Source of the DNA: Rhodospirillaceae bacterium
Lineage (GTDB): Bacteria; Pseudomonadota; Alphaproteobacteria; Rhodospirillales; Rhodospirillaceae
Length of the DNA: 64,000 nt
Assembly: GCA_050250575.1 (NCBI GenBank)
Contig: JBFWOJ010000018.1
Coordinates: forward strand, 5,816-69,815
Direction of reading: 5' to 3'
In this document: in pieces, positions 11,579-49,759 of the stretch
Position numbering within the stretch: the first letter of the stretch is position 1
Layout of the letters: every line of letters begins with the position of its first letter
The notes under the pieces: generated by a model
The model's input: the letters and a program-made list of their open reading frames with translations, nothing else
Database searches by the model: none
Told to the model about the DNA's origin: nothing
Position numbers and translations under genes: made by a program

Positions 11579-13084
11579 TCACTTCCAAATCGGCTTGCCC
11601 GACCCCGGCAGTCCGTAGCTCGCCCACTTCTGCGTGACGAGTTTCACGATCTCCTCGCTCATGGCAATCTTCTCGCCCCACTCGCGCATGGTCTCGCCCG
11701 GCAGCTTGTTCGTCGCATCGAGGCCGATCTTGCCGCCGAGGCCCGGTACCGGTGAGGCGAAGTCTAGATAATCGATCGGTGTATTCTCGATCACGGTGAT
11801 GTCCCGCGCCGGGTCCATGCGCGTGGCCATCGCCCACATCACGTCTTTCCAGTCGCGCGCGTTGATATCGGCGTCCACCACGATGACGAACTTGGTGTAG
11901 ATGAACTGGCGCAAGAAACTCCACACACCCAGCATCACGCGCTTGGCGTGGCCGGCGTAGGACTTCTTCATGCTCACCACGGCGATCCGGTAACTGCAGC
12001 CTTCGGGCGGCAGCCAGAAGTCGACGATCTCGGGGAATTGCTGCGTCAGCAGCGGAATGAACACTTCGTTCAGCGCTTCGCCCAGAATGCTTGGCTCGTC
12101 GGGCGGCCGGCCGGTGTAAGTCGAAAGGTAGATCGGGTTGCGGCGCATGGTGATGGCCGAGATCTTGAACACCGGGAATTTCTCGACCGCATTGTAGTAG
12201 CCGGTGTGATCTCCGAACGGGCCTTCGTCGCCGTAATCGTCGAGCATGACGTGGCCTTCGAGCACGATCTCGGCGTCGGCCGGTACTTTGAGGGGCACCG
12301 TCTTGCAGTCGGCGAGCTCGACCTTCCTTCCACGCAGCAGACCGGCGAACTGATATTCCGACAGCGTGTCCGGGACCGGCGTGACGGCGGCGAGGATCGT
12401 GCCCGGATCGGCGCCAATCACGGCTGCCGCGGGAAGCGGTTCGCGTTTCTTCGTCTTCCAGCGATCGTAGTGCCCCGCCCCGCCGCGCTGCTTCAGCCAA
12501 CGCATCAGCGTCGTATCGCGGCCGGTCACCTGCATCCGGTAGATGCCGAGATTGTAGACGTCCCGTTTGTCGTCGCCCGGCCCTTTTGTGACGACAAGAG
12601 GCCAGGTGATGAGCGGGCTCACGTCGCCCGGCCAGCAGGTCTGGACCGGAATTATGTTGAGATCGATCTGATCGCCGGTCAGCACGATCTCCTGGCACGG
12701 CGCGCTGCCCACCGTCTTCGGTTTCATCGCCATTACGGTCCGCAACAGCGGAAACAGCTCGAGCGCTTCGCGCCAACCACCCGGAGGCTCGGGCTGTTTC
12801 AGGAAGGCCAGCGTCTCGCCGACCTCGCGCAACTGGTGCGGCTCGCGGTCCATCCCCCAGGCCACGCGCTCAACCGTGCCGAACAGATTCGCCAGCACCG
12901 GCATGGCATACGGCCCGTTCGGTCCCACCACATTTTCAAATAGGAGGGCCGGCCCCCCTTCCGCCAGGACTCGAGTCTGGATTTCGGTGATCTCGAGGTG
13001 CGGGGAGACCGCCGCTTTCACGCGCACAAGCCGTCCCTCCCGCTCGAGGCGGGTCATGAACTCCCGAAGGGACTGATAGGGCAT
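11579..13084 (-). CDS. ubiD: UbiD-family decarboxylase (4-hydroxy-3-polyprenylbenzoate decarboxylase)
   Basis: The N-terminus reads [20 protein letters not shown]. UbiD-like sequence runs the full length. The start is set at M16 of the ORF (about 501 aa). Confidence 0.9.
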
Positions 13085-13425
13085 GAGCGCGGGCCAGCCT
13101 AGGGCTCGAGGAAAGGGATGGTTGTCCAACCACTTAACGATCCAGTTTGGAAGCCGTCAAGCAAGCGTTCCGGCAGCATCGACGCGCAACCGCTAAGGGA
13201 ATTAGTTGCTCTGCCTTGTCGTTCGAGAGCTGTAGTCCTAAGATACGCACCGTTAATCGGGCGTTTGCATTTTTCGGATAACCCGCTGAATGGTCGCGAA
13301 AAACGCGATCCAAAAATGACACCGGCGGCGGTAGGAGCACCGGCCAAACCGGAAATGTCATCGAAATGTGGGTCGTCGCGCACTCCTTAAATATGGCGTG
13401 CCGGCGAGAAGGGCGGAGAGGGTTA

Positions 13426-15159
13426 ATGGACGGCGATAGTGGGCGCAGTGCGGCAAGCGGCCTCGAGCGGCTGATCGAGATCGGGCTCGCGCTTTCGGCC
13501 GAACGTAATCACGACCGCCTGACCGAGCGCATCCTTCTCGAGGCGATCGACATCACCCGCGCCGACGGCGGCACGCTCTACCTGCGTACCGAAGAGAACA
13601 CCTTGAAGTTCGTCATCGTGCGCACGGGCTCGCTGAAGATCGCTATGGGCGGCACCACTGGGATTCCCATACCGTTCCCCCCCGTGCGCATGTACAAGGC
13701 CGACACCAACGAGCCGAATTTCAGCAACGTCTCGGCCGCCTGCGCCCTCAAGAAAGAAGCCATCAACATCGAGGACGCCTATACCGCCGAAGGCTTCGAC
13801 TTCTCCGGCACCAAGAAATTCGACCAGGGCACGGGCTACCGCTCGAAATCGTTCCTGTGCATTCCACTCAAAAACTATTCCGAAGAAGTCACCGGTGTGC
13901 TGCAGCTCATCAACGCGCAGGACGCCGGGGGCAACGTTATTCCGTTCTCGAAGGAAGTGCAGCGCACCGTCGAAGCCCTGGCCTCACAGGCCGCCGTCGC
14001 TATCGACAACCAGAACCTGATCGAAGCGCAGAAAGCCCTGATGGACAGCCTCATCAAGGTGATGGCGCATGCGATTGACGCCAAGTCGCCCTATACCGGC
14101 GGTCACTGCCAGCGCGTGCCCGAGCTCACCAAGATGCTGGCCAGCAAGGCGCAGGCCGCGACCGAGGGGCCGTTCAAGGATTTCAAGCTCGACGAACAGC
14201 AATGGTACGAGTTGCACGTTGCCGCGTGGTTGCACGACATCGGCAAGGTCACGACGCCGGAATACGTGGTCGACAAGGCGACCAAGCTCCAGACCATCTA
14301 CGATCGCATCCATGAGATCCGTACGCGCTTCGAGATCCTGCGCCGCGACGCCGAGATCAAGATGCTGAAGTCGATCGCCAAGGGAAAGAACGCGCGCATC
14401 GAGCGTAAGAAGTTCAAGGACCGCTGCGAAGAGCTGAAGAAGCAGTGGGAGTTCGTGGCCGAGAACAATCTCGGCGGCGAATTCATGTCGGCCGAGAAGC
14501 AGGAGAAGGTGAAAGAGATCGGCAGGCAGAAGTACTACCGCTACTTCGACCGTAGGCTCGGTCTGTCGTGGACCGAGAGCAAGCTCCTGGACAAGGCTCC
14601 GCCGCCGCCGGAAGGTTGGGAACAGCTCATGGCCGATCTGCCGGAGCACGCCGAGGCCGAATACCATCTCGGCGAAGTCCTCAACATGTGCATCCAGCGC
14701 GGCACGCTCAATGACGATGAGCGGCGCAAGATCAACGATCATATCGTGCTGACGATCGAGATGCTGAAGGAGATGCCCTTTCCGAAGCACCTCAAAAAGG
14801 TGCCCGAGTATGCCGGCGGCCACCACGAGAAGATCGACGGCACCGGCTATCCCAACAGGCTCACCGGCGATCAGATGAGCTGGCCGGCGAAGATGATGGC
14901 GGTCGCCGACATCTTCGAAGCGCTGACCGCCGCGGACCGCCCGTACAAGAAGGCGAAGACGCTTTCGGAAAGCCTCAAAATCCTGTCCTTCATGAAGAAG
15001 GACAAACACGTCGATCCGGATTTGTTCGAACTGTTCTTAAGGTCTGGGGCTTACCTCGAATACGCCGAGCAGTTCCTGAGACCCGAGCAGATCGACAAGG
15101 TGGACATCAACCAGTACCTCCAGCCGCCACAGCCCAAACCCGCGCAAGCGGCGGAGTAA
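13426..15159 (+). CDS. GAF-domain HD-GYP phosphohydrolase (c-di-GMP phosphodiesterase family)
   Basis: It has an N-terminal GAF-like region, then HDIGKV and GGHHEKIDGTGYP. The start is uncertain: ATG 13426 follows a GGAGAGG, and the ORF opens at 13366. Confidence 0.85.
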   Translation: MDGDSGRSAASGLERLIEIGLALSAERNHDRLTERILLEAIDITRADGGTLYLRTEENTLKFVIVRTGSLKIAMGGTTGIPIPFPPVRMYKADTNEPNFSNVSAACALKKEAINIEDAYTAEGFDFSGTKKFDQGTGYRSKSFLCIPLKNYSEEVTGVLQLINAQDAGGNVIPFSKEVQRTVEALASQAAVAIDNQNLIEAQKALMDSLIKVMAHAIDAKSPYTGGHCQRVPELTKMLASKAQAATEGPFKDFKLDEQQWYELHVAAWLHDIGKVTTPEYVVDKATKLQTIYDRIHEIRTRFEILRRDAEIKMLKSIAKGKNARIERKKFKDRCEELKKQWEFVAENNLGGEFMSAEKQEKVKEIGRQKYYRYFDRRLGLSWTESKLLDKAPPPPEGWEQLMADLPEHAEAEYHLGEVLNMCIQRGTLNDDERRKINDHIVLTIEMLKEMPFPKHLKKVPEYAGGHHEKIDGTGYPNRLTGDQMSWPAKMMAVADIFEALTAADRPYKKAKTLSESLKILSFMKKDKHVDPDLFELFLRSGAYLEYAEQFLRPEQIDKVDINQYLQPPQPKPAQAAE

Positions 15160-15224
15160 ACGGAATCCTCGCGGCCTGACGGCCGCAAGCATGACGAAGT
15201 GCTCCCGGCGATTCATTAAAACCT

Positions 15225-15686
15225 CTAGAGGCGCTTCTCCATCTTGAAGTTGTCGTAGGTCTGTCCGCTGACCGTGACCTTCTGCGGTGTAACAACGACA
15301 AATCCGCGCGCTTCGAAGAAGGGCCGCGCCGTAAGACTGACTTCGGAGTGGAGACTCGCGACACCTCGACGCCGAGCTTCCTCCTCGAGGGCGCTCAAGA
15401 GGGCGCTGGCCACGCCGCGTCTTAGATAGTCGGCGTGGACGTACATACAGTCCACATACCCGGCGGCGCCGAGGTTGGTGAACCCTGCAAGGAATCCTCC
15501 CACGAAGCCGACCCATGTGGAGGTCGTCTCTCCGAAGCGGCGCGCTTGGACGATCGGGTCCTGAGAATTTGCCACCCAGGCGTCGATCTGTGCCGGCGTG
15601 TAGTGCCGCGAGGCGACACCGCGGATCGCGGACCGCCGCACCTCCATCAACGCGAGGAGGTCGTCGGCACAGAACCGCCTTACCAT
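15225..15686 (-). CDS. GNAT-family N-acetyltransferase
   Basis: It is 153 aa. The acetyl-CoA motif region is YVHADYLRRGVASALLSALEEEARRRG. Its start overlaps the ubiA stop by 1 nt. Confidence 0.85.
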   Translation of the reverse strand: MVRRFCADDLLALMEVRRSAIRGVASRHYTPAQIDAWVANSQDPIVQARRFGETTSTWVGFVGGFLAGFTNLGAAGYVDCMYVHADYLRRGVASALLSALEEEARRRGVASLHSEVSLTARPFFEARGFVVVTPQKVTVSGQTYDNFKMEKRL

Positions 15687-16711
15687 TACTCCGGGCACAC
15701 CAGCTCTTCCGGATTGTTGACGTAGCGGATGCAGGCGGGCTTTTCGCCGAAGAACGTCGCGTCGACCCAGCGGGGCACGCGGTAGGCAAGGTTGTGCGCG
15801 AGCAGCGCGGCCAGGATTAGAAGGCCGAAATCGCGGTTCGACTTGAAGATACGAAGGCAGGTCGTGGGGCTGTCGATCGCGAGCGCCTTGATCTGCCAGG
15901 CGAGGTGTCCGGCGGCGAAGCACACCAGCACCTTGGGCCACGGGCCCACCATCAACGGCCATGAGGCGGTGAGGATCAAAGCGAACGCGAGCACATAGCA
16001 CGCCGCCACGAACGGCCGTGTCGCCTGCCCGAGGGCGAGGGCGGAGGACTTCACCCCGATCAGCGCATCGTCATCCTTGTCCTGGTGGGCGTAGATCGTG
16101 TCGTAGCCCAGGGTCCAGAAGAAACACCCCGCGTATAGGATCAATGCATCTGTCTGGATGGTGCCCCGGGCGGCCGCCCAGCCCAGCAGGGCGCCCCAAT
16201 TGAACGTCAGCCCCAGCCACGCCTGCGGCCAGTAGGTAATTCGCTTCATGAAAGGATAGATCGCGATCAGGATCAGCGAGGCGCAGCCGACGCCCACCGC
16301 ATACCAATTGAACTGGAGAAGGATGGTGAGCCCGCCGGCAAGCTGCACCGCGAGGAACACAAACGCGGCGCGTACGCTGATCTCCCCGGCCGGAATCGGA
16401 CGGGTGCGGGTACGCGCTACCTTGGCGTCGTAGTCGCGGTCGACGATGTCGTTGAGCGTGCAACCCGCGCCGCGCATCAGCACGGCTCCCGCCAGGAACA
16501 GGATCATCAGCGTCGTATTGGGCTCGCCGCGCCCCGCAAGCGTGATCGACCACCAGCCGGGGATGAGCAGGAGCCAGAAGCCGATCGGCCGGTCGAGGCG
16601 CATCAGGCGCGCGTACGCCCGCAACCGGCGCGGCAGCAACCGGTCGATCCAACCTCCCTGGACGATGTCTGTACTTGAAGCGGTGGGGCTCATGGAGGCT
16701 ACACTATGCAA
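15686..16711 (-). CDS. ubiA: 4-hydroxybenzoate polyprenyltransferase
   Basis: It has the NDIVDRDYDAKVARTRTRP motif, multiple TM segments and a second Asp-rich motif, YAHQDKDDD. The start may instead be M7 (16693). Confidence 0.9.
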   Translation of the reverse strand: MHSVASMSPTASSTDIVQGGWIDRLLPRRLRAYARLMRLDRPIGFWLLLIPGWWSITLAGRGEPNTTLMILFLAGAVLMRGAGCTLNDIVDRDYDAKVARTRTRPIPAGEISVRAAFVFLAVQLAGGLTILLQFNWYAVGVGCASLILIAIYPFMKRITYWPQAWLGLTFNWGALLGWAAARGTIQTDALILYAGCFFWTLGYDTIYAHQDKDDDALIGVKSSALALGQATRPFVAACYVLAFALILTASWPLMVGPWPKVLVCFAAGHLAWQIKALAIDSPTTCLRIFKSNRDFGLLILAALLAHNLAYRVPRWVDATFFGEKPACIRYVNNPEELVCPE

Positions 16712-17461
16712 ATGTCCAAGCCTGCCGCACCAAAAATCCGCCTCTTCGTCGACGGCGCTCTTTCCCTAGGCGCGTCCGTAGCCGCAAGCGAGGCGCAGGC
16801 GCATTACCTGCTTCATGTCATGCGGCGCGCTTCGTCCGATCCGGTGGCATTATTCAACGGACGCGACGGCGAATGGCGCGCGAAGGTGCAGATGCCCTCG
16901 AAGAAACACGTCGTCTTCGAGGTCGAGGAACAGCTTCGTCCTCAATCCCCAAGTCCCGATCTTTGGCTCGCTTTCGCGCCGGTGAAGCGCATCGATGCGG
17001 TGGTTGAGAAGGCGAGCGAGCTCGGCGCCGCGGCGCTGCTTCCGGTGATGACGCGGCGCACGGATGTCAGCCGTATCAACTTCGACCGGATGCGCGCGAT
17101 CGCCATCGAAGCCGCCGAACAATGCGAGCGGCTGTCCATCCCGGTGATCCAACCGGCGCAGGATTTCGACTCTTTCCTGCGCGGCTGGCCGGCGGCGCGC
17201 CGGCTGTATTTCCTGGACGAAACCGGACAAGGCGCGCCCATCGCACGCGCGTTACAGGAAGAAGTCACGCAATCGTGCGCTTTTCTTGTGGGTCCCGAAG
17301 GCGGCTTCACGGAATCGGAGCTTGACGCTCTCAGGCAAGTCCCGTCTGCTAAGGGCGTCAGCCTCGGTCCTCGCATCTTGCGCGCGGAGACGGCCGCTTT
17401 GGCGGCTTTGGCCTGTTGGCAGGCGCTGCGCGGCGATTGGGCAGGCTTAGCCGAGGGCTAG
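16706..17461 (+). CDS. rsmE: 16S rRNA (uracil1498-N3)-methyltransferase
   Basis: The motifs are IRLFV...AHYLLHVMR...LFNGRDGEW and the C-terminal LVGPEGGFTESE...LGPRILRAETAA. Confidence 0.85.
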   Translation: MQMSKPAAPKIRLFVDGALSLGASVAASEAQAHYLLHVMRRASSDPVALFNGRDGEWRAKVQMPSKKHVVFEVEEQLRPQSPSPDLWLAFAPVKRIDAVVEKASELGAAALLPVMTRRTDVSRINFDRMRAIAIEAAEQCERLSIPVIQPAQDFDSFLRGWPAARRLYFLDETGQGAPIARALQEEVTQSCAFLVGPEGGFTESELDALRQVPSAKGVSLGPRILRAETAALAALACWQALRGDWAGLAEG

Positions 17462-35508: not shown

Positions 35509-35584
35509 GCCCAGGTAGCTCAGTTGGTAGAGCAAGGGACTGAAAATCCCTGTGTCGCTGGTTCGATTCCGGCCCTGGGCACCA
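35509..35584 (+). tRNA. tRNA-Phe (anticodon GAA)
   Basis: The acceptor stem GCCCAGG pairs with CCTGGGC. The D-loop is AGCTCAGTTGGTAGAGC, the anticodon loop is CTGAAAA and the T-arm is GGTTCGATTCC. CCA is encoded. Confidence 0.95.
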
Positions 35585-35586
35585 TT
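35570..35586 (+). repeat. attL core (direct repeat copy 1)
   Basis: CGGCCCTGGGCACCATT, which overlaps the 3' end of tRNA-Phe. Confidence 0.75.
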
Positions 35587-35699
35587 TCTCCTTTCCGCAG
35601 TCGTCCGTAGTCGTTCGCCGACGTCGAACTTAGCCAATAAAACCGGGCCTTTCTGCGTTCGCAGTTACCCGCCCACGTTGGTGGGCAGCCGGACGACTT

Positions 35700-35812
35700 G
35701 TTGGTATTGCCGTTGGTATCGGACGCAGTGTCCGAAATCGATACCAACAGACTCCCTGTTTCGGAGTCATACCCGCGACGGAGAAGACGGGTGTTGGTAC
35801 GGCGCTACCAAC
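35700..35812. repeat. GTTGGTA heptamer cluster between attL and int (candidate arm-type / operator sites)
   Basis: GTTGGTA occurs at 35700, 35712 and 35793, and TACCAAC at 35742 and 35806. The pair at 35712-35721 and 35739-35748 forms a 10-bp inverted repeat. The pair at 35793-35812 forms GTTGGTA-cggcgc-TACCAAC. Confidence 0.5.
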
Positions 35813-35832
35813 ATACCACGAGGTCGCAGGAA

Positions 35833-37038
35833 ATGCTTACGGACGTGGCCATTAAGGCCGAGAAGCCTGGCTCCCAGCCCCGCAAGATCGCAGATGGTGG
35901 AGGGCTTCATCTCCTCATCAATCCGAACGGCAATAAGCTTTGGCGATTCTCGTACCGCTTTGGTGGAAAGCAAAAGACGATGGCTATGGGGGTCTATCCA
36001 GCGACAAGCCTCAAAGAGGCGCGAGACAAGCGCGACGACGCCAAGAAGCTCCTGGAGAAAGGCGTTGACCCGTCTGTCCAGCGGAAAGAGGACAAGCTGT
36101 TCGCCACGGCTGACCGAAGCTTCAAGACCATCGCAGAGGAACTTATTGAGAAATACCAGACCGAGGGCTCTGCGCCTAAGACGATCAAAAAGATGCGTTG
36201 GATCCTGAGTCTCGTGTATCCGGATATCGGCAGTCTCCAGATTGAACAAATAACTCCTCCCATGCTCCTGGCCTCGCTTCGGAAGATCGAAGCTAAGAAA
36301 CGCTACGAGAGTGCCCGGCGCTGCCGGAGTACCTGCGGGCAGGTCCTTAGGTACGCGATCGCGACTGGCCGGGGAGGGCGGGATCTATCCTTCGATCTTC
36401 GCGACGCTTTGATCACTCCTCAAGTCAAACACCGGGCGACAATTGTCGATCCCGCAAAGATCGGCGGCCTGCTCCGTGCCATCGATGGTTACGACGGCAC
36501 ATTCACCACGAAACTAGCGCTGCGCCTGGCACCGCTGGTCTTTGTGCGTCCGGGTGAGCTGCGTCACGCGGAATGGCCCGAGTTTTCTATCGAAACTGAA
36601 TGGCGCATTCCGGCGGAGAAGATGAAAATGCGCCGTCCGCACCGCGTCCCTCTTTCAAGACAGGCGCGCGAAATCATTCGTGAGGTGAAGGAAATTGGAA
36701 TCAACAGCCGGTATCTCTTTCCCTCGGTCCGGAGCAACGGTCAGCCAATGTCGGAAAACACCGTCACCGCCGCACTCAGACGTATGGGCTATTCCGGCGA
36801 CGAAATGACCGGCCACGGATTCAGGGGAATGGCTTCGACCTTGCTGAATGAAATGGGCAAGTGGAATCCGGATGCGATTGAGCGTCAGTTGGCCCACGTC
36901 GAAGGTAATGATGCTCGTAAGGCCTACATTCATCTTGCCGAGTTCTGGGATGAACGCGTTCAAATGATGCAAGCGTGGGCAGGCTACCTCGATCGACTTC
37001 GAGATGCGCTGCCGACGCAGGTGCTGGCAACAGAATAG
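35833..37038 (+). CDS. int: Tyrosine recombinase, P4-like integrase (DUF4102 N-terminal arm-binding domain)
   Basis: The N-terminus is MLTDVAIKAEKPG...GGGLHLLINPNGNKLWRFSYRFGGKQK. The catalytic residues are in ...GELRHAEW...HRVPLS...TGHGFRGMAST...LAH...AY. Confidence 0.9.
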   Translation: MLTDVAIKAEKPGSQPRKIADGGGLHLLINPNGNKLWRFSYRFGGKQKTMAMGVYPATSLKEARDKRDDAKKLLEKGVDPSVQRKEDKLFATADRSFKTIAEELIEKYQTEGSAPKTIKKMRWILSLVYPDIGSLQIEQITPPMLLASLRKIEAKKRYESARRCRSTCGQVLRYAIATGRGGRDLSFDLRDALITPQVKHRATIVDPAKIGGLLRAIDGYDGTFTTKLALRLAPLVFVRPGELRHAEWPEFSIETEWRIPAEKMKMRRPHRVPLSRQAREIIREVKEIGINSRYLFPSVRSNGQPMSENTVTAALRRMGYSGDEMTGHGFRGMASTLLNEMGKWNPDAIERQLAHVEGNDARKAYIHLAEFWDERVQMMQAWAGYLDRLRDALPTQVLATE

Positions 37039-37395
37039 TGCTGAGCCTGAATCGCTTTTTTACTACGTCTGAGAGAAAACTCAAAAAAACTCTCGCCATC
37101 TATTTACAAGCGGTATGGCGATCACCTAGTCTCACGCGGCGTACGTTGAACTGCCCCATCTGGCCAAATCAATAAAGCCCTATCGGCGTACGTGGGAATT
37201 TGAACAGCAGGCGATCTAACTGGCGTCCGCCTTCAGGCGCGATGCCAACTGTTGTTTGGCGGTGGGGGCCGCAGGGTCCATGGCGTTGGGGAATTGGCGC
37301 GCTTCCGATAGGGGCGCGTTCTAATGTCTCGATGGAGAAAAACATCTGCGCCGCGCGCAGGCCGGCAGCACTCCGCCACGCATTCCCAGTTCAAG

Positions 37396-40300
37396 ATGTC
37401 GCGGCGTGCTTTCGTGGGCGGCGCTGGCGCGTCGGTAGTGCTGGGGCCTGAAGTTTTCGCCGCCGCGGCGCCGCCGGAGTTCGTCGATACCGGGACCGGT
37501 TTCAGACTCGAATATGACGGCCAAGGCTGGATCGTCGACCAGCGGCTGTTTGTTGGAAGCCCCAAAGCCCGCTTTAATAAGAAGAAACAGACGATGTCGC
37601 TGCGCAGCGCCACCTATCCGGGCACCTCGCTGCGTGCCGATTTCGATGCTGAACTCTTCGAGAGCGGCTCCGTCTGGATGATCAGGATTCTCTTTAAGAG
37701 CGCGCAGGCGCCGATCGAAGCACCGCTCTCCGAGTGGATGATCTCCGCGGTCCCACGGACGGGACTGGCGGCGAACATCAAGGAAATCCGCATCGGTCGG
37801 TCGGCCCTGCGAGTCCCGAAAACCGCGCCGCGGCCTGACTTCACGATACGTGGGGACTTCCGGGTGACGCTTCGCCAAGGGCAAGCGCTCGGTCCCGTGC
37901 GATTCGACACCGAAGGGCTGCTGGGTCTTCCGATCGCCGTCGAATCAGCCGCGTTCATGCCCTCTGCCGCGGACGATCCGCGCACTACGGTCACGCTCGA
38001 GGTTGCCGAGTGCGTTGGCTTGCGCGTCGGCGAGGTGGGCCGTGACGTGCGGATCACTGCCGACATGTGGGCGCCGTCGTTCAGGGTGCTCGCGAAGGGT
38101 AAGGGCTCTAAAGCTACTGCCAAGATTGATATTTGCGCCCCCGACGGCGTGATCGCCGTTCAGTCTCGCGGCGCGGGCCCGGCCGGCGCGCGCATCCAAT
38201 TGGAGAAGCCCCAGTTCACCGCTGACACCGATGCCTGCCGACGCGACGTGCAGATCGTCGGGGAGGTTGCGCGGCGCGCTTTCGGCTTAGAGACGTCCGG
38301 ATTCTCGGTGATGCTCCAGGGCAGTGGCGAGCGGGTCGACTATCGTTTCACCAACACACCGCTCGAGCGCATCACCTTCCGCTTGCCTTTGATCGGGGCG
38401 AGCGTGCCGATGTCCGACGCCGTCACCGCCGTCACCGCCGACATCATGTACCCGCCGACCAGCTGCGATATCGTCGTGCGCGATGACTTCGTCGAGCCGC
38501 GGGTGCGAGACGATTGCGCAACGTCCATCTGGATCGGCGAGTCGAGTCAGCTCGATCTTCCGCTCGAATCGGGCGACGTCCGCGTGCGGCGCAGCCTCGA
38601 CCTGTTCGATCTGCGCTTCAATTTCCTTCACTACGCCCTTCGTGTCCGGGGCGGCGAGACTCGCATCCGTCAGCGTTGGTCGCACCCGGTCGGCTGCCCA
38701 GTGCAGAAAGTGGGAGATCATGCCGCGCCGCGGATCATCGTTCGCTTCCCGCCCCAGAGTATCCTCGAAGAGGCGTTCAAGCCGCCCAGCGATACAGCAA
38801 CAACCACCAAGCCGGATCCGACAAACCATTGCTACGTGCCACATGAGCGGCATGAGGTCTCATCGGCGCTCGCAAAAACCCGCGTCGCCGGACCAACGCG
38901 GCTGGTGTTCGAAGACAAGTCGGCCGAAAGTGCATGGACCGACCGCCTCTTCACCGTCGATTTCCTCACCGAGTGGTCCGACCTTGCTTTCATTGTCAAC
39001 CGCCGTGCACTGAGCCGGAAGGCGACGCTCGAGGACCAACTCCGGCTGGTCGGGATCGACCCAAAGACCTCGCGCGAGGATGCGCGGGTGAAAATAATCC
39101 AGTCGATTGGCACGCCGGCGGCTGACGAATCCTCCATCGAGGCGGTTTACCGCATGCTGATGTCGCCCGACGCCCAGGCGAAGTGGAAAAGCCGGCGGCG
39201 CCTGGACCCGCAAAGCCCCGAAATTTGGCATACCGATCTCGCCAATCCCGACGAAACCGCGATGCGCGTCTTGTATGCGCGCGACATGGATCTCGGGTTT
39301 CTCACCGGCAATGGCGTATCGTCCCTGCCCTCACAACTGTGGGCCAGTTCCCTCAGCGCAGACGACCGCCGCCAGCTCGCGGCGCTCACATCATTCTATG
39401 GCTTGGCCGCGCTGCGCCGGCTGGTCCAAAACGCCAGCGCGGGCACCTGGGGCGATGATCCCAACGGCATGGTCTTCATGCCGCCGGGAAAGGACTTTTA
39501 CGAGTATCTGACGAAGCCGGATGGCACCGATGTGCCCCAGGAAGCGGTGATGATGCCGAAACCGTTTTCCCGCGCCCGCCTCAGCCTGTCGCGCTCAGCG
39601 ACCCTTGACGCCGCGTGGCATGGCGAGCCGGCGGCGGGTTACGACAACGGCCTCCGGCCTCCATTCTTCAAGCCCTCGTTCACGATCGAGCGTTATCTCC
39701 ATCGATTGCGGGAGGGCCGCGATGTCTTTGTCGAAGTCACCTACAAGGGCTTCCTCTTGCCGCTGGGTCATCGCGCCGCGCTGCTCAAGGTGACGCAACG
39801 CGAGATTCATCCGGCCGCGAACACGGACAAGACCGATCCCGTCGGCTACCTGATCCAGCACTACTACATCGTCTGCCGCAAACCGCTGAAGCATTACCCC
39901 GCCTACAATCAGCCGTTCCGCACACACGAGTTCTCGCCGAAGTCGATCGAGCTCTTGACCACGCAAACGCCCGATCTGGACGACCCGCGCTGGCCGGAAG
40001 GGGCGTTCGCGGATCCAAACCCAGCGGAATACAAGAAGGATGTGTGCCGCCCGCCTCCCGGTCCTGGTGGAGTGGTGGGCGTGTTCTGGCCCGTCCTGCT
40101 CCACGTCCCAGGTCACACGGGGACGGATCAGAAGGGCCGCGAGGTGATTTTCGAATACAAGGTCGATGGCGCCGATACCCCAGCGCGCTCGCCGCTGCTC
40201 TTTGTCGACAACGCCGCAGCGCACGACCCGGACGTCATGAAAATGGTCGTCCAGTATTATAACGACAAGATCATCACTTCGCCCGATTTCTCGCTTTTGC

Positions 40301-43300
40301 GGCCGCTCGCTTATCCCGATACCTTGCGCATCATGGACCATCAGGGTGTGCCGCGCCGGTATGCCGCCGAGACTAAGGCCGGTGAGTGTACCTTCGAGAC
40401 CACGTCCTGGCTCATGAGTGTGCGCGGCCGCGTCCTGCCCGAACGCGGCACGGCCACCGGCGGCGGTCCTGTTCCTGTGCACGAGGTCGAAGACTTCCGC
40501 ATGGACGCCTTCATGGAAGGCAAGGATCAGCCGCCATTCTACCCGGTGATGAGCAAGGCCGCGGTCTCGATCGAGCCGATCAATCGTCTTATCGGCGACC
40601 GCCAGAAGATGATCGAGGTCGCCTTCAACCCCACCTACGTGCGCGAGGGGTTTGATCCCGGGCGCAATCCCTCGGAGATCTATCTTGATCTGCTCGCACC
40701 CATCATCCATCTCGATGTCGCCGCGAATGGCCGGTCGACCGGCGGCGTCGCCAAGCCGAACATCGCCCTCGCGGCGTTGTCGCGGCGCAACGGTCCCATG
40801 GGCGGCCGTGCCGGGCCGCCGCGTCCGAACCCGCAAAACCGTTCGCTGCCTTTGGCGCGCAATGTGACGTCGCGCAAGCAGCTCGTCCTGGGCGGGAACC
40901 ATACGCGCAGCGCATCCGTCCAAAGCGCCATGGCGGGATCCTTCGACCCGATGGAAGCCTTCGGGAGCGCACTCAACGAGGCGAAGCTACTTGGTATCAT
41001 CCCCCTCAAAGACATTCTGAAAGTGGTTGCCGTCGGCCTCGCGCCGAAGCTCAAGGAAAAAACTCAATATCTCACCGGCTTGGCCGACGACACAGAGGCG
41101 GCATTTGCAAAGGGGCTGAAGGCCGCTGGTCAGGCCGTGCGGGATTTCGTTCAGGCCGAAATGACGCAACTTGACGACGGCCTTCGCAAGATGGCTGGTG
41201 GCCAATCCAGTGCCGCCGAGATGTATCCGGAGCTGTGGACCAGCTTCAAAGCTGTGGTCGCCGCAGCCCATACGGCAGCGGATTTGAAGGAGAATCCACC
41301 GCCGTCATTCGTCGAACTTTTCGCACTTGCCGACAACATCAATGCCGCCGTTCGGGACGCCATTGCCGAGGTGCGCAAATTTGCCGAAGACCCGATGCCC
41401 GGCAACCTCGCCGACGCGGTCCAACAGATCCAAGTCATCTGGAAGTCGCTTCGCGATGTGACCAGCGACCCGTTTGCGGCGTTCCGCACCTACTTCGAGA
41501 ACTTCCTCGGTAAGCAAGGTGTGCTCACAACGGTCTGCGATTTTGCCATAACGGCCGGCCTGTTCGAGCAGATCTTCGGTCCGGCGGAGGTCGAGGGCGG
41601 TCCCGGCGGTATCGACTATTTCCTCGAACTGGCGCCGGTCGATACCTCCGTTTCGCCCAACGCGGCTGCCGCCAGACACGAGCAATGGCATGCCGCCTGC
41701 CGCCGGTTCTTGCGCAATCCGAAGGACGTGATGCCGCGTCTCGAGCGCGCGGTGTTCTATCCCACGATTGGCGGTCCGCTGGCCCGGGCGGTCGAAACTC
41801 TGAAAGCGCTGAAGGCCGATGCTGACAAGCAGGTCTCGGTCTCGCGCCGTCAGCTCGCCGAAAAGATCGTCACGGTCCTGCGCCAGGGCGAAGCAGCAGT
41901 CGAGGCGGAAGCCTTGGCGTTTGCTGGCGCCGCCGTCTCCGAGCTCATCGATGCCATGCTCCTCGGTGCGACGAGCGAGAGTCCGCCAAATGTCGAGGCG
42001 GTAGTGAAAGCCATCAAGGGCGATCTCGGAAAGATCGTCGAAAAGCTGAAGACCGACCTTGCTGCAGCGACCACTAAGGCGGCGGAACGGGAGGCTGAAT
42101 ATCGCAATGCGGCGGATGCGGCGCTGGCCGGCACCGATGCCAACATGTATGAGCTCTATTACAAGGAGGTCGCGAAGGCCAACGTTCAGGCGCTCCGGAT
42201 CGAGGCCTTCACCCGGCTCCTCAACCTTATGGCGAAGCCGGATAATCTCGAAAAAATATCGACAGAACTCGAAAGAGCCTTGCGCGCGCTTGTGGATCAG
42301 GCCGTACGCGATGCCCAAGCCGCCGCGGTTGCCTTTGCGAAAACGCAGGCCGAAGGCTTTGCCAAGCGTATCACCGCCGTCGGCCAGGCGCTGGTCGAAC
42401 ACGCGAGCGCCTCCGGTTTCCTCGCCGAGACTGCCGATCTCATCAATCAACTTGCCGGCGGGTGCGAAGCCTTCTCGGCAAAGCTTCTCGCTTTCGCGGC
42501 GTGGATCACCGGCGGCGCAGTACGCGATCTTCAGGCCGCCGGTCAGGCCGTGCTACGCATCGACCAGAAATTCACCGAATTCGCGTTGACGGTTGAAGGT
42601 CTAACGCAAGTGCCCGAGGGTGTTCGCGCCGGCCTGTCGCAGGCTGTTTCCGCAGCCATGACGCCGGTTCAGCGCCTCGGCGCGGTGTACGAAAAACTTG
42701 TTCGCGCCCATCAGGCGGTCGTCAATCATAAGCCGGCGAACGTCTGTATAGACGCCGCCGCTTTCCTTGGCCCCACCGCGCAGGCGCTCGAGCTTCGGCG
42801 CGCGCTTCTCGACACCACGGCGGCTGCGGTCGCGGCGCTCGCCGATATCCGCAGGGTGATCGCGCAGTCGCCGCAGTTGGCGACCGCAATCGTCAATGCG
42901 GCGGTGCTGGACCTCGCAAGTGAGCTGATTCAACTCCTCGACGACGTTTCTATCGTTCGCAGGCTTGCCGCGACCCTTACGCCGCCGGCGCTGGCGGAAG
43001 CCGCCGCGCCGTTCAACACTATCGTCACGGAGTTCGACCTCAACACCAACTTCGCGGAAGAGCTTCGCGTCATGCGCGAGGAAGCGGCGCGGCTGACGGA
43101 CGATCTTGACAGTTTGAAAAAGAACGTTGCGGCGGACGTCGCCAATATTGTCCTGGCGACCGACCACATGCGCCGATTGACCGACTTTGCTGCCAAGCAG
43201 GAGAAGCGCCTGGCCGCGGTCATCCTGCAAGCCTCTCTTGCCGCGGACGGGCTTGTCACCGAAGCAAAGAATAGGGCCGCCGATACGCTGCTGGCGATGG

Positions 43301-44814
43301 GCGCCGCGCTCACGCGCATTCACGACGATGCTATCAAGGTGGTGACTACGCTGCGCGACGGGATCGACAAGTTGCCGGCCTTGCAGCTCGTCCTGTCGCC
43401 GAAGGTCAAAGTTGGGCTGAACGCGACCCTGGACGCGCTGACGGTGGATCGCGGCTTGGTGGATGGCCTCACCGCGGATGGCAAAGCCAAGAATTTCGGC
43501 CGCGCGCGGGATCTCATGCGCGCCTGGCGCCAGGGCCCGCCCGCCCTGGTCACCGCTCTCGCGTTCGTCGAATCCATCGTCAACGCTGTCGCCACCGGCA
43601 ACATCCGCGCACTGATCGATGTCGATGCAATCGAAAGGCAACTGCGCGCGGAGATAGAGAAGCTTATCCCCGCGAAGATTTCGCTCACCTATGACTTCGA
43701 CGCGGAGCTTCCGGGCTATCCCAGCGGTAACGAGGTGTTCGCCATCTCCGACCGCACGAGTAGCCCCGACGGTAGCGGCCCGCTGATCAACGACCTTGTA
43801 ATCAACACCAGGATTGAGATCGACGTCATCAAACAGACACGCACGGTCTCCGCCGAAGGCCGGATACGTCCTTTCAAAGTTCATCTTCTTGGCAACTCGC
43901 CCGATCTCGTCACCATCCTGTTCAAGGGGGCCCACTTCACCGCTGCCCCCGGGAAGAACCCGGATTTTGTTGCCGACATCGAGCGGGTCGAGATCGGAAA
44001 GGCGCTCAGTTTCCTGTCTGCTTTGGCTAGCCTTACCTCTGGGGGCGGGGGCAACAAGGCAGCGAACGGATTTTATTACGAATATCGTCTGCTGCCCCCC
44101 GAGGTCGAAGTCGGATACCGTTTCAATAAGCCCTATCTCGTGCTCGGCGCGCTGGTTTTCCAGAACATTGGCTTTGCGGTTTCGGCGCACCTTCCGTTTG
44201 ACAACCGCAACGCCGAGTTTCGTGTCTCATTCGCGACCCGCGAACGGCCTCTGCTGATTTCATGTGGCGTATGGGGAGGTGGCGGCTTCGTGGGCATCCG
44301 CGCCGACGCTCGGGGCGTCCTGGCGTTTGAAATTCAGCTCGAATATGGCGCCGTTGTAGGTGTCTCGTTCGGCCCCCTCGATGGTTCAGGAAGGTGCTGT
44401 GCAGGCTTGTATATGCTGTCTTACAAGGGTGGCGGCCGCCGCTTCGAAGGGTTTGTCAACGCCGTTGGTGAAGGGCACGTCGCCTGCTTCGGCGCTTCCT
44501 TTCTGCTCGAAGTGCGGACGGTACAGACCGAACGCAGCTCAATGCAAGGTTCATCCACCTACGGCTTTAGTTTTGATCTCGGCTTGACCTCTTACTCCTA
44601 CAGCGTCACCGCGCAATACGAGACCCAGGGGGGCGGCAACGGCGCCAGAAAGATGAGGCCGCAGGGGATTGCGCGGGATTCGTCACGCGCGGCCGCCGCG
44701 TCTGGAGGAAAAATCCCCTCCGCTAGTGGACCTGTCATCCGCAACAATCTGCCGAGCAAACACCACGATTGGCGCGCCTATGCCACGCGCGTGCGCATCC
44801 ATCGGAAAGCATGA
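37396..44814 (+). CDS. Giant protein of unknown function (~2472 aa); Tat-like N-terminus, beta-rich N-terminal half, ~900-aa Ala-rich helical region, beta-rich C-terminal domain
   Basis: The ORF is uninterrupted for 7.4 kb, with GC-rich third codon positions like the host genes. The start is chosen at MSRRAFVGGAGASVV, and the ORF opens at 37324. No family was recognised. Confidence 0.8.
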   Translation: MSRRAFVGGAGASVVLGPEVFAAAAPPEFVDTGTGFRLEYDGQGWIVDQRLFVGSPKARFNKKKQTMSLRSATYPGTSLRADFDAELFESGSVWMIRILFKSAQAPIEAPLSEWMISAVPRTGLAANIKEIRIGRSALRVPKTAPRPDFTIRGDFRVTLRQGQALGPVRFDTEGLLGLPIAVESAAFMPSAADDPRTTVTLEVAECVGLRVGEVGRDVRITADMWAPSFRVLAKGKGSKATAKIDICAPDGVIAVQSRGAGPAGARIQLEKPQFTADTDACRRDVQIVGEVARRAFGLETSGFSVMLQGSGERVDYRFTNTPLERITFRLPLIGASVPMSDAVTAVTADIMYPPTSCDIVVRDDFVEPRVRDDCATSIWIGESSQLDLPLESGDVRVRRSLDLFDLRFNFLHYALRVRGGETRIRQRWSHPVGCPVQKVGDHAAPRIIVRFPPQSILEEAFKPPSDTATTTKPDPTNHCYVPHERHEVSSALAKTRVAGPTRLVFEDKSAESAWTDRLFTVDFLTEWSDLAFIVNRRALSRKATLEDQLRLVGIDPKTSREDARVKIIQSIGTPAADESSIEAVYRMLMSPDAQAKWKSRRRLDPQSPEIWHTDLANPDETAMRVLYARDMDLGFLTGNGVSSLPSQLWASSLSADDRRQLAALTSFYGLAALRRLVQNASAGTWGDDPNGMVFMPPGKDFYEYLTKPDGTDVPQEAVMMPKPFSRARLSLSRSATLDAAWHGEPAAGYDNGLRPPFFKPSFTIERYLHRLREGRDVFVEVTYKGFLLPLGHRAALLKVTQREIHPAANTDKTDPVGYLIQHYYIVCRKPLKHYPAYNQPFRTHEFSPKSIELLTTQTPDLDDPRWPEGAFADPNPAEYKKDVCRPPPGPGGVVGVFWPVLLHVPGHTGTDQKGREVIFEYKVDGADTPARSPLLFVDNAAAHDPDVMKMVVQYYNDKIITSPDFSLLRPLAYPDTLRIMDHQGVPRRYAAETKAGECTFETTSWLMSVRGRVLPERGTATGGGPVPVHEVEDFRMDAFMEGKDQPPFYPVMSKAAVSIEPINRLIGDRQKMIEVAFNPTYVREGFDPGRNPSEIYLDLLAPIIHLDVAANGRSTGGVAKPNIALAALSRRNGPMGGRAGPPRPNPQNRSLPLARNVTSRKQLVLGGNHTRSASVQSAMAGSFDPMEAFGSALNEAKLLGIIPLKDILKVVAVGLAPKLKEKTQYLTGLADDTEAAFAKGLKAAGQAVRDFVQAEMTQLDDGLRKMAGGQSSAAEMYPELWTSFKAVVAAAHTAADLKENPPPSFVELFALADNINAAVRDAIAEVRKFAEDPMPGNLADAVQQIQVIWKSLRDVTSDPFAAFRTYFENFLGKQGVLTTVCDFAITAGLFEQIFGPAEVEGGPGGIDYFLELAPVDTSVSPNAAAARHEQWHAACRRFLRNPKDVMPRLERAVFYPTIGGPLARAVETLKALKADADKQVSVSRRQLAEKIVTVLRQGEAAVEAEALAFAGAAVSELIDAMLLGATSESPPNVEAVVKAIKGDLGKIVEKLKTDLAAATTKAAEREAEYRNAADAALAGTDANMYELYYKEVAKANVQALRIEAFTRLLNLMAKPDNLEKISTELERALRALVDQAVRDAQAAAVAFAKTQAEGFAKRITAVGQALVEHASASGFLAETADLINQLAGGCEAFSAKLLAFAAWITGGAVRDLQAAGQAVLRIDQKFTEFALTVEGLTQVPEGVRAGLSQAVSAAMTPVQRLGAVYEKLVRAHQAVVNHKPANVCIDAAAFLGPTAQALELRRALLDTTAAAVAALADIRRVIAQSPQLATAIVNAAVLDLASELIQLLDDVSIVRRLAATLTPPALAEAAAPFNTIVTEFDLNTNFAEELRVMREEAARLTDDLDSLKKNVAADVANIVLATDHMRRLTDFAAKQEKRLAAVILQASLAADGLVTEAKNRAADTLLAMGAALTRIHDDAIKVVTTLRDGIDKLPALQLVLSPKVKVGLNATLDALTVDRGLVDGLTADGKAKNFGRARDLMRAWRQGPPALVTALAFVESIVNAVATGNIRALIDVDAIERQLRAEIEKLIPAKISLTYDFDAELPGYPSGNEVFAISDRTSSPDGSGPLINDLVINTRIEIDVIKQTRTVSAEGRIRPFKVHLLGNSPDLVTILFKGAHFTAAPGKNPDFVADIERVEIGKALSFLSALASLTSGGGGNKAANGFYYEYRLLPPEVEVGYRFNKPYLVLGALVFQNIGFAVSAHLPFDNRNAEFRVSFATRERPLLISCGVWGGGGFVGIRADARGVLAFEIQLEYGAVVGVSFGPLDGSGRCCAGLYMLSYKGGGRRFEGFVNAVGEGHVACFGASFLLEVRTVQTERSSMQGSSTYGFSFDLGLTSYSYSVTAQYETQGGGNGARKMRPQGIARDSSRAAAASGGKIPSASGPVIRNNLPSKHHDWRAYATRVRIHRKA

Positions 44815-44815
44815 C

Positions 44816-47800
44816 ATGCCCCTAGCAACAAATCTTTTCTGTCTACCGCTCGCCGACGGCATGAAGTCGGACGGCACCCTTCGCATCAGCATCATGGTGA
44901 TGCCTGAGCCGTCGGCGTCCGGAGCATTCCACATGGACAACGAGGCATTGCCGAGCGCCGTCCGCACGGCGGGTACTCCTACAATTTATGTCTTCGACCG
45001 CAATGGCGACCGTATGCCAGTGAAAGGCGTCGTCATTCACGACAACTGGCCGCACAATACCGTCGAAAAAGCCGATGCTCTGTGGCTTAGGCTCTTCCCT
45101 AAAGCCAAGGCTCAGGATCTCTGGGACACGCTTGTGGGGACTGCGTCGGCCGGCGCGCACATTTTAAATCGCAATGACGCAGCCGCGCGCGGCTTTGTCC
45201 TCGCAGGAAAACACGCGGTTTCCGTCCGCGGCGGCCGGCACTATGACCACGCCGGTATCAGTCGGGATCTCGAAGAGGTCAGGGTGGCCGATAGCGCCTG
45301 GCGTCTCGGCGTCGTCGCGGCGGCGTGCCATCTTCAGGAATTGCAGACTCAAAAAGGCGCCAACCAAGATACGCTCAACGGACTAACGTCGTTGCCGGCC
45401 GTTGCCTCCGCGGCTGCTGCGCCGTTCCGCGATGTCGGCCTGATCTTCCGCCGCGCCATTGCGCCGCTGTTCGAGTTCGCGGAACGCCGGTTCGACTCCA
45501 TGGCGCGGGTCGCGCACTTCGTTGCGCCGAGTGTGGAAGATGCGTCGCGCACGTTGTTGTTTGCCGATCTGGACAAGGCGTCCAAGGCCGCGATCAATGT
45601 TGACCGAACCTCACGGCGCCTCGAGGCCGACTACCCCGCGCTTTTCGGCAGCCTGCAGCGAACGCTGGCGGAGACGAAACGACCGAACGTCCTGACATCA
45701 TTGTCGCTTACGCCGAACAGTCTTAAGGCGGCGACACCTCATTTTGCCAAAAAGCTGCTGGCCCACGGCGAGGCAAATCCGATCGAGCAGAAGCAGTCGC
45801 ACGAGCGCGATGTCAAGGTTACCGACAAATATGAGCAGGTCCGCCGTAAGCTGGCCGGGATACGCTCGTTTCCCACGGTCGCCAAGTTTCTCGGCATGAT
45901 TGTCGATGTTGAGATATCGGCCGCGGACGCGGCAAGTTTCCCCGCCAGCGGATTCATCGGCGCCACGTTCGGTACCACCCGGCCGCCCGATATGGGTTCC
46001 GCGCGCGAACTTACAGCCTTCGCTCTCGATCGCGCGCAAGGAATGTTTTACGTCCGCGAAAATCCGCGGTCGGCCGAAGACGGAAATCCCCTGTTGAATT
46101 TCTATAGCAATGACTATCCGTTGCAACGCGGTCTGGCGGTTGGATCGCAATTCACCGTCGGTTCCGACGATCCGGTGATGCATCTTTATTCAACCGCGCA
46201 GCAGATGATGTCCGAGAGCGAGGCCCTTGCCAACGGCGCCCTGCCGCAGAGTCTGTCTTCGAAGCTTCCCGAGGTGCAGAACCGCGGGCTCCATGTGCTT
46301 TATCGCGAGGCCTTCTTTCAGTCGAGCGCCTTCGCCCAGCGCGCGGTCGAGAACGTCATTCGTCGCACGAAAGGCGAGACGATTTATCACTATGCCGAGG
46401 ATCTCATCATTGGCGTGAGGCCCGACGTTCGGCGCACGCGTACGCCCGCCGCGCCAGCTCGCTCCGAGGCAGCGAGTGCCACGCCAGTGGCCGACGAGTT
46501 CCTGCCGCTGATGATCCGTACCTTGTCGTTTCACGACATCCGCAGCGCTTATGGGCGCAATCCCGACGTGGATGACGGCTGGCATCCCTATCCCGAGTTC
46601 CAGGATCGCGATCACGGCGTCGCTCGCGCGCTTCCGAAGCTGGTTCCCAACGGAACTGACAAACAGCTTTCGCCGGCGCAGACCGTCCTCACCTGGATGG
46701 GTGATCCTCTGGGCGTGCCGGCACCGCAGATCGATAAGGACGGAAACGAAATATACGAAGTGCCTGCCTCTGCCGACGACTTCGATCTCGGCCACACCTA
46801 CGACGTCCCGATCAGTCTGCTGCCCCCGCCGGTTCTGCGGGTCGGCGACTCATACGAGTTTGGCATGCGCGCCGTCATGCCCCACGGCGGCGACATCGGG
46901 TTCGACAAGGCGGTCGATCTCTATGATAAGACGGCGCAGGCGCCTTTTGCAGGGGAAGGCTTTGCGACGGCAGCGTTCCCCTTCCTTTATCAGGGCGACC
47001 TGAAGTCCCCTATCGTCCTTCTGCCGCACAACGATCCCTTCCTCAATCCCGCGATCAAAGCGCCGCCGCTGGCGCGTGACGACCGCATCGTGCTGCGCAG
47101 CGGATCATCGGGCCAAACGAACTACATTCGGCGCATCCTTGTTCCGCCCAAGGTCAATCCGGATGTCGCCGAGCAATTCGGTCTTTTTGATCCGTACACA
47201 GACACAGACGATGTTAGCCCGCCCAGCGCCTTTCTTGCTTATCAGCGGGTCGAGGGGACCGGCGCGTTTCCCGACGTCGCAAATCACGCGATCCAAACCA
47301 ATGTAAATCGCAGCCCCGTCGCCGGTGGCGTGCTTGCCGTGGCCAAGCCGACCAAAGCGGAAATACCCGCCTATTACCCGCATCCTTTGTCGCGCACCGC
47401 GATGATGCTGTTCGAACGCAATCTTCGCGTTCCGACGCCCTACACCGACCAACCGGTCGAGATGAGTTTCTGGAACGCGGACGAGACACCTTTCAACGCG
47501 CGCCCGGTGGTTCTGGACTTTTACGCCAACAAAGATGTCAAGGGCGCGGAGGTACAGGCCGGCTTTTCCACAACTCTTGGGGGCAAGGGGACGCCGCCGG
47601 TCACCGCTCACGTCATCAATGTTGCGCCGGCCGAATTTGCGACTCTCTGGTACTGGGTACCGGACGCCAACGAAACCATAACGAAACGCGCGCGCACGCG
47701 CGCGATCGTCAGTCGGCTTGGCAAGGTGTTGGCTTCGAGCGCACACACAATCGCTTTAGCTAAGAATCTTGGCTTCGATTCCGAGGGCGACGCCGACGAT

Positions 47801-49759: not shown

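Follow-up and report, generated by a model that had tools for sequence, protein, structure and literature searches.

The giant gene pair G1-G2 of a Rhodospirillaceae genomic island belongs to an undescribed, mobile two-protein family and may form a co-exported envelope complex

In the hitchhiker pairs of the twin-arginine translocation (Tat) pathway, such as HybO-HybC, DmsA-DmsB, FdnG-FdnH and PaoA-B-C of Escherichia coli, one subunit carries the leader and its adjacent, co-translated partner, which has no signal of its own, leaves inside the pre-folded complex. We have analysed a 64,000-nucleotide stretch of a Rhodospirillaceae bacterium (assembly GCA_050250575.1, contig JBFWOJ010000018.1, positions 5,816 to 69,815; hereafter the window) in which two adjacent giant genes, G1 and G2, show a similar arrangement, with a leader on the first product and a signal-less second product that would leave with it, as predicted from sequence. 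However, no cofactor-binding domains were detected in G1-G2, the proteins are several-fold larger (270 + 180 kDa, with fusions of 400 kDa) and most members of the family, the so-called short forms, are leaderless. Another described protein that invites comparison is the bacterial alpha-2-macroglobulin (YfhM of E. coli, ca. 1,650 aa), by its length, beta-sandwich build, envelope location (predicted for G2) and protease theme, but G2 has no A2M, MG or thioester Pfam match (E<=1), no lipobox, no signal peptide and no PDB or Foldseek match to solved A2M structures. The pair is instead a categorically undescribed, mobile, two-protein family in which G2 is the constant partner of G1. The two genes are as follows.

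37324-44814, + strand: gene 1 (G1), 2,496 aa from ATG 37324, homologous to the Mesorhizobium G1 (2e-96).
44816-49759, + strand: gene 2 (G2), 1,647 aa, without signal peptide or transmembrane segment, of an undescribed family trailing G1.

An earlier note on this DNA, made from the letters alone, had described G2 as an orphan of 1,647 codons at 44816-49759 (+), translationally coupled to G1 with its start 1 nt after the upstream stop. Coordinates, length and gap are all borne out (ATGACATG at 44811-44818, with TGA at 44812-44814 and ATG at 44816); the orphan status is not. An exhaustive phmmer search with G2 residues 300-1499 against 1.84 billion cluster representatives gave 447 matches at E<=1e-3, mostly proteins of 1,400-1,800 aa, of which the best was 39% identical; 170 of the matches reached E<=1e-10, and 72 reached E<=1e-30. 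A word-indexed search with the single G2 sequence returned one relative (a 1,712-aa Mesorhizobium protein, 23% identity), and a profile of 116 sequences returned three; this kind of search is too insensitive for the G2 family. The related-locus search with a two-sequence G2 alignment gave no match. The 116 full-length members that we aligned are very divergent, with 20-40% identity to the G2 of the window, and are held together by a set of fixed motifs: V.PDG....LR.S...P....WP at the N-terminus, followed by AEDLxxGYRxDV, LVHAV.KPL, TSRF, VTRWGxDP and a last block, GxWYxDIxI....PFVRLxLARYQP....LS.P. The window protein has every one of them, and a hidden Markov model (HMM) built from the 116 members recovers 165 open reading frames (ORFs) in the fetched loci. 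Two conserved tracts are located in the window as follows.

44834-44911, + strand: conserved N-terminal motif of the G2 family, LFCLPLADGMKSDGTLRISIMVMPEP, from the N-termini of 70 homologues, the 116-member consensus and profile-relative starts.
48683-49315, + strand: most conserved C-terminal module of G2 (residues ca. 1290-1500), from the conservation profile and motif tables, with the motifs VTRWGxDP and GxWYxDIxI...PFVRLxLARYQP...LS.P.

The C-terminal stretch which the earlier note had suspected to be a conserved module, residues 1409-1461 (49040-49198), does lie inside the most conserved block of the family and includes two of the three residues that are invariant among the 116 members (Q1449 and S1459). 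The note could put no name to it, and no annotated family of known function was matched by G2 in Pfam, NCBIfam, PADLOC, PHROGs, PDB sequences or Foldseek; G1, too, lacks a match in Pfam, NCBIfam, PADLOC, PHROGs and PDB sequences. The window protein hit zero families of Pfam, NCBIfam and PADLOC at E<=1, there were zero PHROGs matches for the pair, a Pfam scan of 16 diverse G2 and 20 diverse G1 proteins gave nothing relevant at E<=0.01, and no paper or family describing G1 or G2 was found in the literature and databases searched. Judged by its sequence, G2 is a member of a large, very divergent and unannotated family.

To describe the surroundings of these genes we used 66 genome and 80 metagenome loci, obtained in two scans with a five-sequence alignment of the G2 C-terminal module. 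The earlier note had left it as a question whether homologues always neighbour a homologue of gene 1, and they do: wherever a locus extends upstream of G2 (ca. 90 loci, from many phyla), a G1 homologue is found directly upstream on the same strand. The coupling is a trait of the whole family, since G2 starts between -8 and +30 nt from the stop of G1 in 60 of the 87 non-redundant loci, with overlaps of -8, -4 and -1 being common (in Mesorhizobium the overlap reads TGATG), and natural fusions of the two genes also exist. Adjacency is broken mainly in loci of Streptomyces type and of other actinobacteria, where a gene for a WD40 or TIG-domain protein separates G1 from G2. Its product is a WD40 beta-propeller of 718 aa in L063 (5169-7322), and in L047 (5767-7467) it has 567 aa and four TIG/IPT domains. 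L063 has, in addition, an Rv2525c-like glycoside-hydrolase-like protein after G2. Four G1-G2 fusions of ca. 3,700 aa were found (P0107, P0118, P0130 and P0131), each with a Tat-type leader at the N-terminus, both G1 cores and a complete G2 part from residue ca. 2,230-2,280 to the C-terminus. Their mutual identity is only 35-42%, and therefore the fusion must be old and not an assembly artefact. Because the fusions have no convincing internal transmembrane segment, G2 would be located in the same compartment as G1. A paralogous relationship between G1 and G2 was rejected (hhalign probability 0.2%), and so was a universal third gene, the neighbour clusters being lineage-specific.

The distribution of the pair is wide. 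Genome loci were found in Actinomycetota (Streptomyces, Actinomadura, Herbihabitans), Chloroflexota, Acidobacteriota, Verrucomicrobiota, Armatimonadota, Saccharibacteria and Symbiobacteriaceae, and among the Pseudomonadota in more than 10 Achromobacter species, Methylobacterium, Elioraea, Rhodanobacter, Undibacterium, Arenicellales and others. Two irregular cases deserve mention: in A. vitis (L005) G2 is split in two ORFs of 1,262 and 592 aa, and in Methylobacterium indicum (L012) there is an opposite-strand ORF, also of 1,647 aa (12161-17101, - strand), 1.4 kb past G2, which the G2 profile does not recognise.

The intact frame over 1,647 codons and the conservation of every family motif argue against an untranslated or decaying ORF, which we regard as very unlikely. 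The protein has zero 19-residue windows with a Kyte-Doolittle hydrophobicity >=1.6, no signal peptide and zero 30-residue windows of low entropy, in agreement with the previous description of G2 as devoid of signal peptide, transmembrane segments and low-complexity tracts. The richness in Pro, Asp and Val that had been mentioned is real but mild (A 12.5, L 8.4, P 7.8, V 7.6, R 7.1 and D 6.7%). The two in-frame starts further upstream do exist (44669 and 44780), although the codon at 44669 is TTG and not GTG as had been read. The G2 frame is open back to this TTG, the use of which would add 49 unconserved residues overlapping G1, while ATG 44780 would add 12 aa. The N-terminal motif of the family begins at ca. 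residue 8 of the product that starts at 44816 (LFCLPLADG...LRISIMVMPEP), homologues start 0-10 residues ahead of the first profile-aligned position, the Met of the closest relative aligns to Met within one residue of the 44816 product, and GGAAAG lies 6 nt 5' of ATG 44816. Because of the position of the motif, the homologue starts and this GGAAAG, ATG 44816 appears as the best-supported start, with ATG 44780 as a less likely alternative. Along the stretch 44669-44815 the G2 frame, +1 relative to that of G1, is open for 49 codons over the end of G1. Nothing here points to frameshifting, although natural G1-G2 fusions occur elsewhere, and the open stretch may be due to high-GC DNA that is poor in stops. 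A promoter scan gave promoter-like sites at chance level, and a terminator scan gave weak scattered matches (26 against 15.7 expected), none of them convincing at an operon boundary.

The structure of G2 was predicted in two halves with AlphaFold2, for which the fetched loci supplied the alignments. The C-half model (985-1647) has a predicted local distance difference test (pLDDT) value of 79.5 and a predicted template modelling score (pTM) of 0.79, and is nearly all beta; the conserved C-terminal module within it reaches a pLDDT of 92-97 and forms a beta-sandwich core (model residues 424-476). The N-half model (1-1000; pLDDT 71.1, pTM 0.77) is composed of a small beta domain (1-80), helices of low confidence (82-358) and, predicted with confidence, a mixed alpha/beta body (360-950). 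The protein, in which the earlier note saw many short beta-like stretches, is not all beta: residues ca. 82-358 are predicted, at low confidence, to be helical. Taken as modelled, the mixed alpha/beta body of G2 would be large and would lead into a series of beta-sandwich domains. Foldseek against PDB gave no match at E<=1e-3 for either half (only Fab/Ig-like proteins, with a template-modelling score, TM, of ca. 0.1), and against BFVD the best matches of the C-half were Ig-like herpesvirus gC and phage baseplate/tail proteins, with TM 0.1-0.17 and a root-mean-square deviation (rmsd) >15 A; the queries being half-protein models, remote similarity of a single domain may persist. Neither the profile HMMs of the two G2 halves nor that of G1 found anything among PDB sequences at E<=10, and single-protein searches of PDB sequences with G1 and G2 gave chance matches only.

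The clue to a possible cellular location comes from G1. Its start is likely to be ATG 37396 (Met25) and not the first ATG of the frame, giving a product that would begin with the Tat-type leader MSRRAFVGGAGASVVLGPEVFAAAAP; the leader as read from Met25 is SRRAFVGGAGASVVLGP and contains SRRAFVGG. Behind an N-terminal extension, the window G1 has a first core (ca. 420-1250), an Ala-rich helical insert of variable length (ca. 1250-2100) and a Gly-rich C-core (ca. 2150-2450). G1 varies from 900 to 3,000 aa across the family, and the short forms (900-1,450 aa) lack the N-terminal ca. 420 residues and the Ala-rich helical middle. A twin-arginine leader was found in all 10 complete long-form G1 and in all four fusions. 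These long forms are those of the window and of L001, L004, L005 and L041 (including Mesorhizobium, the plasmid copies of S. meliloti and A. vitis and a metagenome-assembled genome (MAG) of Fimbriimonadaceae), together with five more from Arenicellales, Undibacterium, Roseomonas, Methylibium and Methylorubrum podarium. The genome of the window encodes TatC and two Omp85 proteins, and therefore the host is a diderm with a Tat system. With a twin-arginine leader on G1 and no hydrophobic segment on G2, the pair has the sequence features expected of a hitchhiker pair.

We therefore favour, as a tentative reading held at somewhat less than an even chance, that the long-form G2 is the signal-less partner that is co-exported with G1 as an envelope complex working with lytic or processing enzymes. 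G2 would be the obligate partner subunit of a mobile module, rare but phylogenetically widespread. With a leader on G1 and none on G2, the two co-translated proteins would fold and bind each other in the cytoplasm and then pass the inner membrane jointly via Tat, with G2 as the hitchhiker. The product would be a periplasmic or envelope complex of ca. 450 kDa. The hydrolase encoded next to the pair, usually Sec-exported, would share this compartment and either act on peptidoglycan to accommodate the complex or process the complex itself. In the window there are two candidates for this role.

49781-50569, + strand: YkuD-like (L,D-transpeptidase) protein, 262 aa, no signal peptide, with a borderline Pfam YkuD match (1.1e-4).
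50630-52366, + strand: S8 subtilase, 578 aa, no signal peptide (Pfam Peptidase_S8 2e-30; PADLOC 'subtilase' 1e-8).

Small hydrolases recur as the next gene behind G2 in the long-form loci, and their class varies from locus to locus: aspzincin M35 in L001 (Mesorhizobium), L075 and L142, M10-like in L010 (L001 has also an M10-like gene upstream of G1), a lytic transglycosylase SLT in L016, M23 in L112, C70 in L083, and the YkuD-like and S8 genes in the window. SLT, M23 and YkuD-like enzymes would be peptidoglycan-active, and M35, M10, C70 and S8 are proteases; five of the slot hydrolases have Sec-type signal peptides. The YkuD-like protein of the window scores 23.3 bits against a cut-off of 23.4, and its His...SAGCIHL resembles the His/Cys site of L,D-transpeptidases, although it is signal-less, unlike the housekeeping enzymes of this kind. 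The YkuD-like gene that seemed to follow G2 in a close relative (L115) proved to be spurious, the weak match corresponding to an outer-membrane beta-barrel-like protein.

Several facts weigh against co-export. To our knowledge, a cargo of 270 + 180 kDa, or a 400-kDa fusion, far exceeds any known Tat substrate. Among ca. 58 complete short-form G1 proteins, 52 have no export signal and only six have a leader, the leaderless ones beginning straight at the conserved VLRPDDLL...FPPQS; therefore the core function of the family cannot depend on Tat and its core activity must work also in the cytoplasm. The YkuD-like and S8 proteins of the window have no signal peptides, unlike the hydrolases of other long-form loci, and in several long-form loci the gene downstream cannot be recognised or is missing altogether. 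Besides, the hydrolase pattern is a judgement by eye, with no background control. It is because of the size, beyond that of known Tat cargo, and of the leaderless majority of the family that we keep co-export below an even chance. Going one step further, the long-form complex could be the largest Tat cargo and a new envelope or antagonism machine that deploys an exchangeable lytic enzyme, a bolder proposition that we consider rather improbable.

The pair of the window is the cargo of an island of ca. 17.3 kb inserted at a tRNA-Phe gene and closed by attR, with the following boundaries.

35509-35584, + strand: tRNA-Phe (GAA), found by ARAGORN; its 3' end, 35565-35586, is attL.
35698-37038, + strand: P4-type tyrosine integrase (Pfam Arm-DNA-bind_3 6.5e-28, Phage_int_M 8.3e-27, Phage_integrase 3.5e-18).
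52898-52919, + strand: attR, a repeat of the tRNA-Phe 3' end found by repeat search, 20 of 22 positions identical to 35565-35586.

The island contains only the integrase, G1, G2, the YkuD-like gene and the S8 gene. G2 is absent from all 40 related genomes examined, 24 of them of the same genus, and turned up in four of 400 further genomes drawn evenly from the phylum. Conjugative plasmids, one of S. meliloti and one of A. vitis, carry homologous pairs. In the former (HM006 accessoryA, L004) the pair adjoins a type-I-like N6 DNA methylase and a WYL gene, and in the latter (CG957 plasmid, L005) it adjoins a dpdE-J 7-deazaguanine DNA-modification cluster. The situation in Achromobacter is of another kind: a leaderless short-form pair is found in the same chromosomal neighbourhood in more than 10 species (L031-L064, e.g., L038, 2150-11059), near QueF-like and cytochrome-c-peroxidase-like genes (identified by eye), and appears to behave like a vertically inherited gene pair and not like island cargo.

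Short-form loci have their own accessory genes. A P4H-like 2-oxoglutarate-Fe(II) oxygenase is found directly after G2 in 15 loci (six non-redundant), and GT2 and GT4 glycosyltransferases, a PF11397 N-acetylglucosamine (GlcNAc) transferase and Rv2525c-like glycoside-hydrolase-like proteins are also present. In the loci of Acidobacteria type (L018, L019, L082, L089, L091, L094-L096, L101, L134 and others) the oxygenase starts ca. 0-17 nt from the G2 stop (in L089, for example, at 1147-1761), and there are also a hypothetical gene of ca. 320 aa, a GT2 gene upstream and a GT4 gene downstream; PF11397 was matched by two non-redundant neighbours in loci of this type. This neighbourhood suggests hydroxylation and glycosylation of a protein substrate.

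There are other possible explanations for such a module. One would be that G1 and G2 form a cytoplasmic conflict or anti-phage defence module carried by mobile elements, with proteases (S8) as effectors or activators and the Tat long forms as a derived side branch. The absence of any signal in most G1 proteins, the integrative island, the plasmid pairs that adjoin a methylase and a WYL gene or dpdE-J, the patchy distribution (ca. 1% of genomes) and the PADLOC 'subtilase' match of the S8 protein (1e-8) would all fit. However, PADLOC matched neither G1 nor G2, no NTPase, nuclease or sensor domain was found in the 36 members scanned, the accessory hydrolases of the long forms are Sec-signalled and target the envelope, and the constant chromosomal context across many Achromobacter species is unlike that of typical defence islands, all of which makes defence an unlikely role.

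The other alternative is that G1 and G2 are a platform for the delivery or display of polymorphic lytic effectors against neighbouring bacteria, the gene after G2 being an exchangeable payload comparable to the effector cassettes of type VI secretion systems (T6SS). In these cassettes (with YkuD-fold Tlde1, M23 or lytic-transglycosylase effectors) large conserved genes are likewise followed by a variable slot for an envelope hydrolase, on mobile DNA, and enzymes of YkuD fold, M23 enzymes and lytic transglycosylases are known types of antibacterial effectors. The alternation of non-homologous hydrolases in one slot (M35, M10, M23, SLT, C70, YkuD-like) and the mobile, strain-specific nature of the module are what such a platform would predict. 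Against it, components of T6SS, Rhs, PAAR or VgrG type are missing from G1-G2, the hydrolases are not followed by any recurrent small immunity-like gene or recognisable immunity gene, no nuclease, lipase or NAD-glycohydrolase payload was found among the neighbours scanned, and short-form loci have hydroxylases and glycosyltransferases instead. Most candidate payloads carry a Sec signal of their own and therefore need no carrier to exit the cytoplasm. An effector platform is accordingly a doubtful description of the pair.

A much less probable idea is that G1 and G2 are very divergent baseplate and fibre parts of a phage-tail-like or contractile-injection apparatus. In extracellular contractile injection systems (eCIS) the baseplate/tail-fibre module (Afp11-Afp12-Afp13) also has two large adjacent genes and Ig-like beta-sandwiches, and DUF6519 corresponds to eBAP5, the baseplate-anchor domain of eCIS tail fibres in a 2026 catalogue (PMC12923769). 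One locus of our set, in a Rhodanobacter MAG (L008, 10907-12454), has a DUF6519 gene with one internal TAG 16 nt after G2. To this could be added the weak Foldseek matches of the G2 C-half to Ig-like phage baseplate/tail proteins and the variable length of the G1 helical insert. But DUF6519 is found in only one of the 114 non-redundant downstream genes scanned, PHROGs gave no match, the Foldseek matches have TM ca. 0.1 and rmsd >15 A, with no fold match to solved baseplates of contractile injection systems, and the island has no other tail gene. No Baseplate_J, gp25, sheath or tube genes are present at G1-G2, nor did Pfam show families of baseplate, sheath or tube proteins in the pair or in the neighbours sampled, other genomes not having been systematically searched.

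Finally, a remote analogue of the Tc (ABC) toxins, with a ca. 2,500-aa A followed by a ca. 1,500-aa B component, has in its favour only the rough sizes and order of the two genes, plus mobility. Sequence and fold effectively refute it: there is no shared domain (no VRP1, TcA/TcB binding domain, SpvB or RHS/YD Pfam match at E<=1 in either protein, and no Tc-family Pfam match at E<=0.01 among 36 relatives), PDB was matched neither by sequence nor by fold, a third (C) component is missing, and G1 ranges from 900 to 3,000 aa, with short forms of only 900-1,400 aa.

A giant pair that recurs across many phyla without a family, fold or function assigned to it represents a gap in the catalogue of bacterial machinery. 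For annotation the gain is immediate, as a supposed orphan now belongs to a family that can be defined and recognised by diagnostic motifs. The changing hydrolase after G2 offers an experimental handle to distinguish among cell-wall remodelling, processing and antagonism. If the leaders work, the size limit of Tat export would be pushed several-fold, and these proteins would provide a direct test system for that limit.

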